DNA of 64,000 bases from an uncultured SAR116 cluster alpha proteobacterium (GTDB taxonomy: Bacteria; Pseudomonadota; Alphaproteobacteria; Puniceispirillales; Puniceispirillaceae): the NCBI GenBank assembly GCA_902578815.1, contig CACHEI010000002.1:61563-125562 (forward strand). Reading direction: 5' to 3'. Each line of letters begins with the position of its first letter. Position 1 is the stretch's first letter. Position numbers: made by a program. Below are positions 9,001 to 21,000 of the stretch, in pieces.

Positions 9001-12000
9001 CTTGATATGCGAGAATCATGCCATTTGACCGCTGCGGTCTTGATCACACCCCATAAAACCGCAAAACTAATTCAAAGTTTCCGAATTTATCCTTACCAAA
9101 GGGCCCCAGGCGTTCTATTTTGGTACGGATATTGCTAGATTGCTAGGCATTCTGCTTTTTATGACAGGTGAGATTTATAATGGATTTGGCATCAATTATT
9201 GGGTTCCTTGGGGCTGTCGCAATGATCATACTTGCCATGTTACTTGGCGGTGGCGTTTCTCCATTCATTGACCCGCCGTCGCTGGCGATTGTTGGAGGTG
9301 GCACCTTTTTTGCTGTGATGTACAACTGTCCACTGCCGGCATTTCTTGGGAGTTTTGGTGCCATGGGCAAGGCCTTTTTCCCGCCAGTAAAAAAACTGCC
9401 GGATATGGTCGAACGAATGACTGATTTAGCTGGCATTGCCCGAAAGGACGGCATGATGGCGCTTGAGGGGCAAGAAGTGCCAGATCCGTTTTTTGAAAAA
9501 GGCCTTCAAATGCTTGTGGACGGCGCGGACGAGAACAAACTAGCAAGTCAATTGTCTATGGAGATCAAGTCCATGAAATCTCGTCATGAGGCTAATCAGA
9601 CAATCATCAACGCCTGGGTAGATCTAGCTCCAGCAATGGGGATGATTGGAACCCTAATTGGACTGGTTTTGATGTTGGGTAATATGGCTGACCCGAAAGC
9701 GATTGGACCGGCGATGGCGGTTGCTCTCTTAACTACTCTCTACGGCGCCTTTATTGCTAACATTGTCTTTAAGCCTATGGTTCTCAAATTGGAAGGCTAT
9801 ACCACTTACGAAGTTGTTTATCGCGAGATGGTCGTCGAGGGCTTGCGGAACATTGCTCGTGGCGAATCACCGCGAAACATCCAAGACATTATGCTTTCTA
9901 GCTTGCCGCCTAAGCTCCAAGCTGAAATGGCTGATGCTTAATCTGGAGCGCACTTTAACGAGTTGCTGGAGATAAAAAATGGCTGATGCCACCGAAGTCG
10001 ATGGTGAAGAAGAAGAAGAAGAAGTTGAAGAGTTTGATGAAGGGTGCCCGGAATGTCCAAAGTGTCCTCCGGTTGGTGCGCCAGCTTGGATGGCAACCTT
10101 TGCCGACATGGCGACTCTACTAATGGCGTTCTTCGTTTTAATTCTGTCATTTGCTGAATTCAACGTTCCAAAGTTCAAGCAAATTTCGGGCTCGCTAAAG
10201 AACGCTTTTGGTGTTCAACGCGTGGTACCAATAGTTGAGCAGCCAAAAGGGACCACGGTTTTATCACTTAACTTTAGCCCATCACCAAACCCTTCGATTA
10301 CGACGGATATGACGCAGCAGACAACCAGCGTAACCCAGCCTGATCTTGAGTTAAAACAAAAGAAAAAAGAGGACGATGGAGGCGAAAGCGAGGCAGCAGA
10401 GGATATTGTGCGCGCACTTGAAGACGCAATTGCACGCGGGGAGATTGAGGTTGAAACACTTGGGGAAAAGGTTGTAGTCAATTTCACTGCAACTGACGCT
10501 GAAGAACAGGATTTACCCCAATTGCTGCGCGAAACCCTGAACGCAATTGAAAAGGCGCAAAACGCAGCCGGCAAAACTGACCAGGAGGTCCTTATTGGTG
10601 GGTTGAATGAGAAATTAGGCCAATTGATGGCTGATGCGAGCGCTGCGTTGGAAGCATTGACTGCTGCTGATCAGGCAACTCAAGACGCCGCCTCCGAAAA
10701 GAATGAGAAAATTGAGAGGGCTAAGATAGCAGAAGATGAACTCAAGGTTGCTCTCCGCCAAGAGATTGGTGAGGGACTTGTCGCGGTTGAGCGCGACGAA
10801 GAACAGGTAATTGTAACAGTTGGAGCCGGTGGCGCTTTTGCATCAGGATCGGCAACGCTGACAAATGCAGCCAAGGAGATTATGTCTAAAATTGCAGGTA
10901 TTAATGCGGATGGCAGTGGTAAAATTACCGTATCTGGCCACACCGATGATGTTCCTTTGATTTTTGGCTCACAATTCCGCGACAACTGGGATCTGGCGGC
11001 CGCTCGTTCAGCCAGCGTTGTTCAGGAGCTTGAAGATACGGGTATGATCCCCGCAGGTCGGATGGAGGCTGTAAGCTATGGTGAATCAAAACCGATCGAG
11101 AGTAACAGCACGGCTGATGGGCGGTCGGTAAACCGTCGGATTGAGATTGAGATTAATTACTAAGACTGGTACGGGCCATTGGTCCCACGACAAAACAGCT
11201 TAGCCACCACTAGTAACGAGACTGGCATGAGGCTTTCATCTAAGTGGAAGATTACGTAAGTATTTACTGGCGACATTAGGCCAATAAAAAGTAATCAGAG
11301 CCACTTTTCAGCGGGCCATAAACACAGAACAGCGAGGCACTTAGCCTAATTATTTCTGCCAGCATGACCCTCTCCGCAAACCTAAAGACAACTTTATAGA
11401 GCTCTATCAAATAGGCACTTAGTATGGTTTCTGCGCGTTGTTTTTTAATATTCATTATGCAACCGGCACGGAAAATGCATCAGATGGCGTATCACTAATC
11501 CTTGACGTTTTTAGTCTAGGGGATGTGAAAACTTAAGTGGCTTGTGAGTTTTTTTAGTTAAAGAGTGATTAGAAGAGCGGCATAATGGCTAAACTGTCTG
11601 TGGATCAAACTCTGTTAAGGGCAAAGTTGCATATAAAAAAGGGAGAACTTGAAGAAGCTCAAAGGTTTTACCAAGCCGTGTTACTAGCGTTTCCCGAGAA
11701 TAAAAGAGCAAAAAAAGGACTGGATGCCTTGAGAAAACCTAATGCAGCAACCACTTCGCAAAACCCATCTCAGCAACAACTCAGTAGTCTTTTTGAATGC
11801 TATCAGAGCCGACGATTTGGTGAAGCAGAAAAGCAAGCGGTATTTATTACTAACGAGTTTCCCAAAAATCAATTTGGCTGGAAAATTTTAGGCGCAGTAT
11901 TGAGAGCAACTGGCAGAAATTCTGAAGCCTTAGATGCTAATCAAACAACAGTAGCGTTATCTCCTCAAGATGCCGAAGCCCACAACAACTTGGCCGTGAC

Positions 12001-18000: not shown

Positions 18001-21000
18001 CGATAACCTAGACCGTGTTGATATCGTTGAATACTTATCGAATGCGGAACTGAAATTTGATTACTTCATTGCAACAGATGTATTTGTCTACGTCGGTGAT
18101 TTATCTGAGGTGTTCCGCCTCATAAGGGTTAGAAACAAAAAACCTGGGAAATTAGTATTTTCGACTGAACATACTAATGAGAAAGGTTTTCATTTAGAAA
18201 AATCTGGGCGATATTCTCACTCTAAGAGTTACATTGAAGAGCTTTGCAAGGAATTTGACTTCTCAATATCTCATTTCTCAGAGACAAATCTTAGAAAAGA
18301 AAAAGGGAGTTTTTTGATTGGAGGCCTTTACTTCTTAGACTTTTGAATCAGGCTTTTCTGCCATGACCCGTTATGCACCGACACCTTTTCTTACCCAAAA
18401 ACTATTCAGGCTCTCTCACAGTCATTCTTGTCATCTTTGTCATTCAACGAGGGAGAATAGATATATCTAATCCTTCGTTATGAACAACGGCAGTGACCCC
18501 ACCCGCAAATAGGCATGTCAGTGACCCATTGGATTGCACCAAACGACGACTGATAGTGGTTACCAGTGTTTAAACACAATCTGTGAAATAACACATGTTT
18601 AATAGGTACGTAGGTGGGTATGGTTCCTGCCTACCCATCTCGTAGATAGATTCATTCATAATAGGTCCTTTCCATTTCCAGAAGATTTCTGATTGGGTAG
18701 GTCATTGACGCATCTTGACTGCGCGTGTGATGAATGAGATTTTAGGCTCTTCTTGGATTAAGGCATCTAGCTGATACATACGTAAGGAACCAATACCGCC
18801 CCTGGGCACCACTTCTTCTATGGTCCGTGGTTCAAATACCTAATTTTCATGCATCGTGGTTGTTCGTCCGCAGTGCTCGAATCACGGTCCTTCCCATCCA
18901 CTTGGTTATGACCTTGAGGCCGTAGCCGCTGCCATACTTCTAGCCAATACCAGGAGTAGCCCAGCCACAAATTGCATCAGTGATATCTGAAGGACATTCA
19001 ACCCTGCGTAGCCTGTCCCAAAGACTATGGCGGAGGCTGTCAAGCTCATCTCGGATGGGTACAGGAACACTATTTGGTCTACCTCAACCTCCTGCACCAA
19101 TGAAAACCGAAGCTCTCTTATGTGGAAGACTTCCAGGCAGATGCTATCCAAGTAACGCTACAGCCTATCAGACAGAGCATGGGTAGATCGCTGCGCCTTG
19201 AGTGACAATCTCCTGTGCAGTGAAACGATCACGCCATCCTTGTTAAAACGAAAGCACACATTCGATGGAACGCAGCGAGAGATATAGAAAATACCATTAC
19301 GGCAAATAGGATAGGAATGATTTTGGATCAAAGTCTGGCTCACACTTCCCAACATCAAACATTAAAATGGATAAAAATCGGGACTTGAACAACAAACCAT
19401 GGAAGAAATTGTGCCAACAGGCTAACTATCGGACGCTATCAAAATATTTCAGCGAGCGAACTTGGACGACTTTAAAAGATGAATCTGCAGGCATGTTGCA
19501 AGAAAGGTAAGTAGTGAGAGAGAGCGATATTTATTGTCAATAACTACTCTGACTGTAAAGGCGAAGCTGCCGCGGTAGATGCCCCAGCCGGCTTCTGACT
19601 GGACTTACGACGACGGCGCTTTTTTGGCTTGACCTCTTCTGCTTCAGGCGCTCCGACAAACGAGGGGTTATAGATGCTTTTTGGGTCGAACTGGCGGCAG
19701 GTTTCCTGCACTTCCTTAACGGACCTGGCGGCAACAATCATCCACATTTGCCGCTGGCGCATTAAGTTAAAACTACGCTGAAGAGTTAGCTGCGATTGGC
19801 GAAAATACAGTGCCAAAAGAACAATGACAATAACGAACAGCATCCAGCTGACGGTTAATGTTACCGCGTATATCAGGATCACGGCCAGCAGAACCTCCCA
19901 CAAGCGGTTTTGGATCAACCAAATCGGTGAAGCAAATGTCGCCGCCATCGAAGGTTGGGTGTCGATAATCACACACTTTCGATTAATATCGCGCAGTACC
20001 TCAAAAATTCGGTATTCCTCTAACGGGGCAATGGTGGTTTCAGCCAACTTCTTGCTTGCAGCACTTGCAATTTCAGGTTTTGCATATTCGAAGGCACACC
20101 CAAGTGGCCCACGTGCGATCACATGAAACAGGCTTCCTTCTCGGAAAATCGTTAGAAAAATACCGGTCTGTGAATCACATTCAAAGATCTCATCAAGCAG
20201 CAGATCTATGTCACCATAAAAAGGCTTGCCATCGACGGCAACAATTACATCATCAGTTTCCAGGCGTAACGTGCGTGCTCTACAGATAGGCCTAATATCC
20301 TTGATTGCAAAAACACTGTTTTGCGGTTGCACAGCCGCATCAAGCGCCTGTGGAGTTTCTGCCGGGTTCAGCATGGATTTACTACCGCTGACCAATGCAA
20401 GGAGCCAGCCAATGCAACGAGCAAGCCGGTGCCAAACCCCATTTCATCGGGCGGTCTGTTGAAAAATCAGCCATGTTCACACTCCAAACCATACCCCTAT
20501 CCCGAATAAGCGACGTACATCACCATTAAGAAAGTAACATGATATCATTGACTCAACCATCTTTCCTCTGACCTAGTAGAAAACGTTAGGGGTAGCTGAC
20601 GCGGTTGTCACGTTCCTTGAACATTTCCCTAATCGCAGCGGTCTGGTCAGACAGCTCATTCAGTTCAATTAGCATATTTTTCTGATTCATTGCGATACCC
20701 TCAACGAATTTAGCGTTGGAGAAATCCTTTTTCATTGATGAAATTACTGACTCAGTGTGGGCCTCTGTGGACTCCATCTGTGCAATCATCTTGCGGGTCT
20801 GTGAGCCAAGCTCGCCAGCGATGCCCGTTGTGATGGCACCAGCAAGCGTCTCGTTGGACTGAACGACCTCATTAGTGGTTTCCTTGAGGCCTGCAATGAC
20901 CGCTTGATTCGTGCGAGCAATCACCTCACGCAACCCACCAAGCTCATTAATCAACGTTTCATTCTGGACAATCAGGGTCTGCTGTGCCTCCATAGCAGAC

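Follow-up and report, generated by a model that had tools for sequence, protein, structure and literature searches.

This report concerns a 64,000-nt stretch of the genome of an uncultured SAR116 cluster alphaproteobacterium (GenBank assembly GCA_902578815.1, contig CACHEI010000002.1, positions 61,563 to 125,562, forward strand; hereafter the window) and two genes inside its flagellar gene cluster, open reading frames (ORFs) A and B (Table 1). SAR116 is among the most abundant bacterial clades of the ocean surface. Each of the two genes encodes a tetratricopeptide repeat (TPR) scaffold joined to a class I S-adenosylmethionine (SAM) methyltransferase domain, and we are highly confident of the shared architecture, of the mosaic make-up of both genes and of their origin in a mobile element. 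The wider explanation, that they are mobile, modular methyltransferases which find their substrates through the TPR part and may act on flagellar proteins, is put forward tentatively and falls a little short of probable.

The earlier note on this DNA had described two reading frames with nearly the same start, near-identical TPR arrays and different methyltransferase ends, and this description was confirmed, coordinates included. ORF A and ORF B are identical at 32 of their first 49 residues (65%), above the 40% found over the TPR region as a whole (BLASTP E 2e-96). The tandem repeats of ORF A were also detected by a separate repeat search, as family D1. The C-terminal modules align only in the region of the SAM-binding motif (26% identity over 121 aa, E 0.02), and beyond that motif they are essentially unrelated. 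TPR and transferase domains are carried on one polypeptide in both ORFs, as seen in Pfam matches and, for ORF B, in an AlphaFold2 (AF2) model. As translated, both N-termini are charged amphipathic helices and not hydrophobic signal peptides. Exact-sequence look-ups with the two proteins returned no match, and neither catalytic module is covered by a specific family in NCBIfam.

Comparison at the DNA level marks both genes as mosaics, with breakpoints after the N-terminal module and within the TPR array. Window nt 11761-14303 is 82% identical to a gene of the gammaproteobacterium Candidatus Njordibacter, with the N-terminal module unmatched; as this match begins only at nt 11761, a recombination breakpoint is placed there. 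The upstream leader, N-terminus and TPRs of ORF B (nt 16441-17692) match, at 77% identity, the 5' half of a Rhodobacteraceae gene for a TPR-sulfotransferase. Between the 5' module of ORF A and that of a sulfotransferase gene in the same slot, in opposite orientation, on metagenome contig L256 the identity is 72% (related loci are given here by their L numbers). Repetitive TPR DNA is the presumed substrate for this recombination.

The two genes lie in a ~7.9-kb segment that is an insertion relative to SAR116 relatives. Homology between the window and L256 stops at nt 11363 and restarts at nt 19250, and L256 holds 2.7 kb between these points. In L094 and L095, motB is followed after ~0.5 kb by orf283, orf269 and flhB, and in 52 relatives with both genes the motB-orf283 gap measures 70-2080 bp. 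The G+C content is 38-44% inside the segment versus 47-50% in the flanks. Between ORF A and ORF B is a tyrosine integrase pseudogene, the second stop of which (nt 15699-15701) directly precedes the expected catalytic-tyrosine motif YGxGY. Its N-terminus is missing, leaving ~25 residues fewer than in the L081 integrase. The surrounding DNA (nt 14563-18814) has a nested layout, with 90-nt inverted repeats around the integrase and contiguous ~410-nt inverted repeats around ORF B, the arms being 82-90% identical. A 17-nt attachment-site (att)-like core, GCCCC(C/T)(A/G)GGCA(T/C)CACTT, is found three times, on the outer ends of arms a and b' and at the junction in segment X.

This nested layout also stands beside TPR-enzyme genes, with intact integrases and with arms that are 100% identical, in L081 (Rhodobacteraceae nBUS_22; nt 4746-13914), L036 (IMCC1909; nt 4593-13665) and L003 (Njordibacter; nt 12207-13687). 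In these three loci the outer ends of both outer arms and the inner-segment junction also have a short core in common. The layout occurs across Alpha- and Gammaproteobacteria, with integrase repeats of 90-178 nt and TPR-enzyme-flanking repeats of 400-780 nt. For L036 this core coincides with the 3' end of a tRNA-Ser gene that overlaps arm a, and in L052 the integrase abuts a tRNA-Leu gene; the window contains no tRNA gene, and the segment has no tRNA 3'-end boundary there. The pattern suggests a tRNA-targeting integrative element with an internal inverted copy resembling the phage attachment site attP, and we read the segment in the window as a decayed relic of such an element. Integrases of the same type accompany TPR-enzyme genes in non-flagellar contexts in L003, L036, L052, L069, L076, L081 and L254. 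The last of these, a metagenome contig, carries three tandem units at nt 1-20366 (integrase fragment, TPR gene with a MAKLSVDQ-type start and a GT-B-like C-terminal domain, DUF6165, integrase), an arrangement that points to serial integration at one site.

Other roles for the repeats were considered. An Rfam search over nt 11000-21600 returned no RNA family; the long inverted repeats thus do not belong to a known class of structured RNA. A promoter and terminator scan gave fewer sites than shuffled sequence and was uninformative. A phase-variation switch of ORF B was rejected, as the att-like core pattern fits an integrative element better; in the relatives with perfect arms the promoters lie inside the invertible segment, so inversion would leave both coding and expression unchanged. 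Membership of a defence system was likewise rejected, PADLOC having given only generic TPR and methyltransferase similarities.

The extra domain of ~250 aa that the earlier note had placed ahead of the methyltransferase of ORF A was found at aa ~376-625. It has no Pfam match and is modelled by AF2 as all-alpha, with predicted local distance difference test (pLDDT) scores, taken in 10-residue blocks, of mostly 60-94 over model residues 10-200. The methyltransferase itself is recognised in Pfam as Methyltransf_25 (aa 647-742; Methyltransf_25/11 together aa 647-745). Its closest solved relative is Rv2067c of M. tuberculosis (PDB 8HKR; E 7e-19 with the single sequence, 5.8e-30 with the profile), others being 3MGG, an uncharacterised Methanosarcina methyltransferase (1.5e-19), and then the Rickettsia enzymes PKMT2 (7.6e-10) and PKMT1 (8e-9). 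Residues 60-256 of 8HKR align with positions 271-466 of the ORF A family profile, covering the Rossmann core and helical insertion, and the aligned part of Rv2067c (residues 62-251) takes in the dimerisation subdomain of its published domain map (PMC10739865). PKMT1 and PKMT2 act on the outer-membrane protein OmpB, in which they methylate many lysines (PMC8232902). By sequence, the catalytic module of ORF A groups with these protein-lysine methyltransferases (Rv2067c, PKMT1/2). Homology makes it fairly probable that ORF A methylates protein; the product would most likely be methyl-lysine, and the enzyme probably acts as a dimer.

More than 7,700 homologs of the C-terminal 510 aa of ORF A were found (family A), with identities of 70-80% across marine Alpha- and Gammaproteobacteria. 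The G-C-G-T-G, D300 (catalytic-module numbering) and HHM motifs are invariant in 41 of the homologs. The lengths of family members (P0003-P0120) step by 34 aa (749, 783, 817, 851, 885), which shows that TPR copy number varies between otherwise near-identical proteins. Many contigs end within family-A genes, which suggests that the TPR repeats break assemblies.

In ORF B, Pfam places Methyltransf_12/23 at aa 394-497, preceded by the TPR repeats. There are 435 homologs (family B), the best 88% identical; many bear the name 'predicted TPR repeat methyltransferase' or COG4976, and with proteins so named the identity ranges from 56 to 88%. The SAM motifs, aligned with METTL27, are intact: motif I is ILDLGCGTGL, the acidic post-I residue lies in IDLS and motif II is FDYFIATDVF. 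The closest solved relatives are METTL27 (E 8e-8), ToxA and NodS. ORF B is, on these alignments, a member of the COG4976/METTL27-like 'TPR repeat methyltransferase' family, and its chemistry could be N- or O-methylation, of protein or of glycan.

TPR-enzyme genes are concentrated near the genes of the flagellar filament. Among SAR116-type alphaproteobacteria they occur within 10 kb in 19 of 46 fliD-anchored versus 1 of 80 motB-anchored loci (Fisher p 4e-9), loci that are phylogenetically non-independent and in part belong to the same genomes found through family A. The fliD-anchored loci were gathered with a FliD alignment; a genome scan with one FliD sequence as query found no relatives. The enzyme types near fliD and fliC include sulfotransferase, GT41, family A, family B and GT-B-like. 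Family A stands directly beside fliD, fliC or fliS in L025, L028, L067, L071 and L075, in clusters syntenic with the window, and L202 has a family-B gene near fliC. The closest sequenced genome, L174, carries an intact TPR-sulfotransferase and an intact TPR-TylF-like methyltransferase between fliC and flgL (nt 14219-17491). At this position the window has only a marginal N-terminal remnant. The earlier note had reported a third, decayed copy next to fliC; a weak N-terminal-like match is indeed present, but it is marginal (tblastn E 0.022; at the DNA level ~40 nt around FPENKRA match with a score of 34, compared with a maximum of 30 in 200 shuffles).

The motB-orf283 slot is itself occupied by TPR-enzymes in three lineages, each with a different cargo: the window has families A and B, L113 an A-like gene and L256 a sulfotransferase. 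The L113 gene (nt 11244-13139) encodes a diverged family-A member of 631 aa, 34% identical, with a short helical N-terminus and no long array of TPRs. Freshwater Betaproteobacteria (Limnohabitans, Oxalobacteraceae, Rubrivivax and other Burkholderiales; L225, L228, L235, L236, L249, L252) have TPR-GT41 or L075-type genes within 10 kb of fliC/fliD, so the presence of TPR-enzymes near flagellin genes is not limited to marine alphaproteobacteria.

In the explanation we put forward, ORF A and ORF B are cytoplasmic enzymes and belong to a superfamily of marine bacteria that is modular in build and horizontally mobile. A TPR scaffold (N-terminal TPR unit, short linker, then near-identical 34-aa repeats in variable number) is combined in it with interchangeable group-transfer domains, namely two kinds of SAM methyltransferase, sulfotransferase, GT41 and GT-B-like. 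The TPR array would recruit a protein substrate, as in OGT, FlmG and Maf-1, and the C-terminal domain would then methylate it with SAM. The likeliest substrates in this organism would be the surface-exposed domains of the axial proteins of the flagellum, or the glycans on them, and modification would take place in the cytoplasm, ahead of export. Flagellar surface chemistry would then differ between strains. Tentative as it is, a flagellar substrate is the single most likely target for ORF A and ORF B in this clade. The precedent cited by the earlier note, TPR-mediated recruitment of flagellin, is experimental for FlmG and Maf-1, in which the TPR domain is both necessary and sufficient for flagellin binding and is needed for flagellin to be modified (PMC7591256; bioRxiv 10.1101/2023.12.03.569772). 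The proposal of the earlier note that flagellar proteins are methylated gains from the enrichment near fliD, from the occupation of the motB slot in three lineages and from the grouping of ORF A with lysine methyltransferases, and loses from the nature of the segment as an insertion and from the presence of family A in Pelagibacter (see below). The motif proposed there as a candidate methylation site, D(K/T)KG(F/Y), was found at two places in FliD, at three in FliC and at two in FlgK.

Several observations, besides the non-independence of the loci behind the enrichment, weigh against a flagellar role. Only 5 of 80 family-A loci have flagellar genes, the other 75 being non-flagellar, and of the 16 loci found via the N-terminal signature, in a profile search that recovered mostly short fragments, just one is flagellar. 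Three of the short fragments were examined and proved to come from frameshifted long-read assemblies; they are not genuine small proteins. Family A is present at 60-69% identity in the Pelagibacter isolates L016, L018 and L019; Pelagibacter has no flagella, and the family is therefore not flagellum-specific. It is also found in contigs labelled Bacteroidota, Verrucomicrobia and Acidobacteria, which together with the high identity across classes argues for horizontal transfer, and Njordibacter and Rhodobacteraceae IMCC1909 have 3-4 paralogs per genome. ToxA and NodS, among the solved relatives of ORF B, are small-molecule N-methyltransferases. Both genes are missing at this site from relatives whose flagellar genes are nearly identical, so any flagellar role would be dispensable and strain-specific. 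The AF2 model of ORF A, from a shallow alignment, has a mean pLDDT of 59 and a poor catalytic half; for this reason a Foldseek search, which returned 8HKR first but with template modelling (TM) scores of only 0.20-0.26 and an identity of ~26-27%, adds little beyond the sequence match. Finally, flexible islands are known to be especially common in the flagellar clusters of marine bacteria (PMC3542563), which makes position in the cluster weak evidence by itself, and evidence that cuts both ways.

A rival reading is that the two genes are cargo of a mobile island with no part in the flagellum, methylating some other protein or cell-envelope component, and that the motB-orf283 gap simply tolerates or attracts integrase-borne insertions that usually carry TPR-enzyme genes. 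This is a serious possibility, though on balance a doubtful one. In its favour are the absence of the insertion from L094 and L095, the low G+C content of the segment compared with its flanks, the same-type integrases beside TPR-enzymes at the non-flagellar loci listed above, the occurrence of family A in flagellum-less Pelagibacter, and the contexts of L001 and L002, which are glycosyltransferase-rich variable regions without flagellar genes. It is opposed by the distribution within the clade, where TPR-enzyme genes are ~30-fold commoner in fliD/fliC than in motB neighbourhoods, by the occupied motB slots of L113 and L256, which have no integrase, and by the three catalytic types found in flagellar slots, which suggest selection for the class of enzyme and not for one element.

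It is improbable that the substrate of either or both enzymes, above all of ORF B, is a sugar or another small molecule, for example a glycan on flagellin or another surface structure, with the TPRs serving only in complex assembly. Such a role would suit the solved relatives of ORF B (METTL27, for which the substrate is unknown, ToxA, NodS and sugar N-methyltransferases), the glycosyltransferases in the contexts of homologs, and the TPR-TylF-like enzyme beside fliC in the closest genome, TylF being a sugar O-methyltransferase family. However, no genes for the biosynthesis of nonulosonic acid or other glycans were found near ORF A and ORF B in the window, the characterised relatives closest to ORF A are protein-lysine methyltransferases, and a TPR array joined to a transferase typically works as an adaptor for protein substrates, FlmG and Maf-1 being examples. 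OGT is a further fusion in which the TPRs have this function.

We consider it very unlikely that ORF A and ORF B are functionless remnants decaying along with a dead element. The integrase is a pseudogene and the repeat arms have degenerated to 82-90% identity, but neither ORF is truncated, and all residues invariant in the respective family are kept in both. In neutral simulations at the per-lineage divergence implied by the arms (at least 5%), which presume that the arms were once identical, at most 0.3% of runs for ORF A and at most 1.2% for ORF B were free of stop codons. The intact ORFs and the rarity of stop-free runs together argue for selection on both.

The shared N-terminus, described in the earlier note as of targeting type, is the first TPR unit of the common scaffold and not a targeting signal, given the TPR model matches and the three-helix fold predicted for it. 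Residues 9-46 of ORF A match TPR_2, TPR_19 and TPR_14, all under the Pfam cut-off, while residues ~10-47 of ORF B exceed it (TPR_19, 27.9 bits; TPR_14, 25.5 bits). In the AF2 model of ORF B, a single-sequence model in which only the TPR part is resolved, residues 6-52 form three helices (pLDDT 75-93), followed by a short low-confidence linker centred on residues 55-58 and then a confident TPR solenoid up to residue 344. The same N-terminus (MAKLSVDQ...FPKNKRA.GL type) is fused in other marine genomes to sulfotransferase (L081, L082, L084, L093), to GT41 (L083, L087, L090) and to a GT-B-like domain (L254), as well as to family A, family B or an L075-type domain, or occurs with TPRs alone. The N-terminus of ORF B differs from that of family-A homolog P0035 at 9 of 64 positions; most family-A homologs begin with a related MELTIEQALQQG... 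TPR or lack the unit entirely. That the 49-aa segment is a dedicated signal directing different catalytic domains to giant flagellar proteins is therefore scarcely credible: it is better conserved than the rest of the scaffold (65% versus 40%) and is conserved along with upstream DNA across genomes, but it is a TPR unit, 15 of the 16 loci anchored by it are in non-flagellar contexts, most family-A homologs (including the flagellar-locus copy of L025) have other N-termini, the fliC-adjacent TPR-enzymes of L174 start differently, and TPR-enzymes also accompany flagellins of ordinary size (L025, L174).

A bolder extension of the explanation, and an unlikely one at present, is that SAR116 and other abundant marine bacteria possess a 'polymorphic enzyme' system, in which a conserved 5' module is recombined with interchangeable 3' catalytic cassettes and the products decorate flagellar axial proteins. 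The 5' module would consist of promoter, N-terminal TPR unit and TPR array, and the cassettes would comprise lysine-type methyltransferase, COG4976 methyltransferase, sulfotransferase, GT41, GT-B-like and TylF-like methyltransferase. TPR DNA would act as the recombination substrate, and integrase elements with an internal inverted attP copy as the vehicles. Strain-specific methylation and sulfation could then diversify the flagellar surface against flagellotropic phages. No description of flagellin sulfation was found in the literature searched and, to our knowledge, none exists more widely.

Should TPR-fused methyl- and sulfotransferases modify SAR116 flagella, flagellin modifications would extend beyond glycosylation and FliB-type methylation, and two very large uncharacterised families (family A and the COG4976/METTL27-like family) would gain a testable function. 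The mosaic structure shows that substrate-recruiting scaffolds are naturally re-paired with catalytic domains, and integrase elements with nested inverted repeats illustrate transfer between phyla. Both points matter for phage-host dynamics and for designing enzymes that modify chosen proteins. Even if there is no flagellar link, the locus is explained, as ordinary flexible-island cargo.

The flagellar cluster of the window has the following gene order: rpoN, motA and motB; flhB, fliR, fliP, fliM, fliK, fliI, fliH, fliG and fliF; two sigma-54 activators and a CLC channel gene; then the genes for FliD, FliC, FlgL, FlgK, FlgI, FlgH, FlgG, FlgF and FlgE. Of these proteins, FliD measures 906 aa, FliC (nt 45098-48727) 1209 aa, FlgK 1690 aa and FlgE 1396 aa. 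MotA is 99.6% identical to its counterpart on L256. MotB is 90% and FlhB 92-93% identical to those of the SAR116 single-cell and metagenome genomes L094 and L095, and for MotB the figure of 90% holds with SAR116 AG-901-J20. These identities place the organism among the SAR116/Puniceispirillales alphaproteobacteria. The position given for ORF A and ORF B in the earlier note, between the stator genes and flhB, holds in that they lie between motB and flhB, but orf283 and orf269 also precede flhB. The latter two genes are kept between motB and flhB across dozens of SAR116-type genomes and are likely to be uncharacterised components of the flagellar cluster; the orf283 protein has one hydrophobic stretch and a basic C-terminal tail. 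The CLC-type chloride channel gene (nt 39781-41415), which includes a CBS domain, adjoins fliD in an order kept in most SAR116-type relatives, and may have a role in motility or ion homeostasis. Directly past the stop codon of ORF B is a 44-nt element (nt 18376-18419) that is 89% identical to nt 6830-6873 and 13192-13235 of L081 (Rhodobacteraceae), where each copy closely follows the stop codon of one of two divergent TPR genes; the element may serve as a terminator or in recombination.

Table 1. Positions in the window of ORF A, ORF B and associated features.
Feature	Position (nt)	Strand	Description
motB	9979-11163	+	Left flank of insertion; Pfam MotB_plug and OmpA
Strain-variable segment	11363-19250		~7.9 kb between motB and orf283; flanks homologous to closest relative
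ORF A	11585-14239	+	884 aa, ATG start
ORF A domain order			N-terminal TPR unit, linker, ~9 TPRs, ~250-aa all-alpha domain, class I SAM methyltransferase with Rv2067c-like insertion, conserved tail ending MYQFWCQK; TPR half aa 1-375
Shared N-terminal module of ORF A	11585-11758	+	aa 1-58; TPR unit and low-complexity linker
ORF A TPR-coding tandem repeats	11970-12668	+	102-bp (34-aa) units, 6.9 copies, 85% matches (TRF)
ORF A methyltransferase core and post-Rossmann region	13502-14236	+	aa ~640-884; Methyltransf_25
Inverted-repeat arm a	14563-14652		Left of integrase; 90% complementary to 15793-15882; att-like core at outer end
Tyrosine integrase pseudogene	14715-15830	+	DUF6538 and Phage_integrase (Pfam); in-frame stops at 15300-15302 and 15699-15701
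Segment X (a' + b)	15793-16271		Left part inverted relative to arm a, right part inverted relative to arm b'; read as an internal inverted attP-like copy
ORF B	16685-18346	+	553 aa, TTG start
ORF B domain order			N-terminal TPR unit, linker, ~8 TPRs, COG4976/METTL27-like class I methyltransferase; TPR half aa 1-345
ORF B TPR-coding tandem repeats	17063-17692	+	102-bp (34-aa) units, 6.2 copies, 91% matches (TRF)
Inverted-repeat arm b'	18421-18814		Right of ORF B; 82-89% complementary to 15866-16271; att-like core at end
Integrase 3'-end-like remnant	18977-19017	-	80% over 41 nt to 15642-15682, inverted; also matches L036 integrase region
orf283	19544-20395	-	Right flank of insertion; conserved; no Pfam match; motB neighbour in most SAR116-type relatives
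orf269	20586-21395		Conserved gene between orf283 and flhB; no significant Pfam match
flhB	21767-22921		After orf283 and orf269 in the window
Possible decayed N-terminal module remnant	48967-49110	+	Between fliC and flgL; internal stop; motif FPENKRA

Among the closest known systems are FlmG of Caulobacter and Maf-1 of Shewanella. Like ORF A and ORF B, these combine TPRs and a transferase on one cytoplasmic polypeptide and are encoded in or near flagellar clusters. They differ in carrying GT-B or Maf (MAF_flag10) glycosyltransferase domains where ORF A and ORF B have class I SAM methyltransferases, and the families of ORF A and ORF B, in contrast, are also found far from flagellar genes and in non-flagellated bacteria. 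With Rv2067c and PKMT1/PKMT2, ORF A has in common the Rossmann core and a helical insertion after beta-5, to which it adds the upstream TPR scaffold and the family-specific ~250-aa all-alpha domain. ORF B finds its place, judged by sequence, alongside COG4976 proteins and human METTL27; no link of COG4976-type proteins with flagellar loci or integrase elements was found in the literature searched. Salmonella FliB resembles the proposed system in outcome, which would be methyl-lysine on surface-exposed flagellin domains, and its gene lies inside the flagellar regulon. It works by a [4Fe-4S]-mediated mechanism (PMC8598068) and, in contrast to ORF A and ORF B, lacks TPRs. Among the Pfam and NCBIfam matches listed for the two proteins or their catalytic halves, which for some queries were the best 25 families per protein, there was no FliB-type model. 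Flexible flagellin-glycosylation islands are thought to diversify the flagellar surface against phages (PMC3542563). Those of the Alteromonas fGI4 type are similar to the present locus in being strain-specific, replaceable gene sets inside an otherwise syntenic flagellar cluster. The cargo here differs, consisting of TPR-fused methyl- and sulfotransferases and not of operons for sugar biosynthesis and glycosyltransferases, and one version of it is accompanied by an integrase relic and nested inverted repeats.

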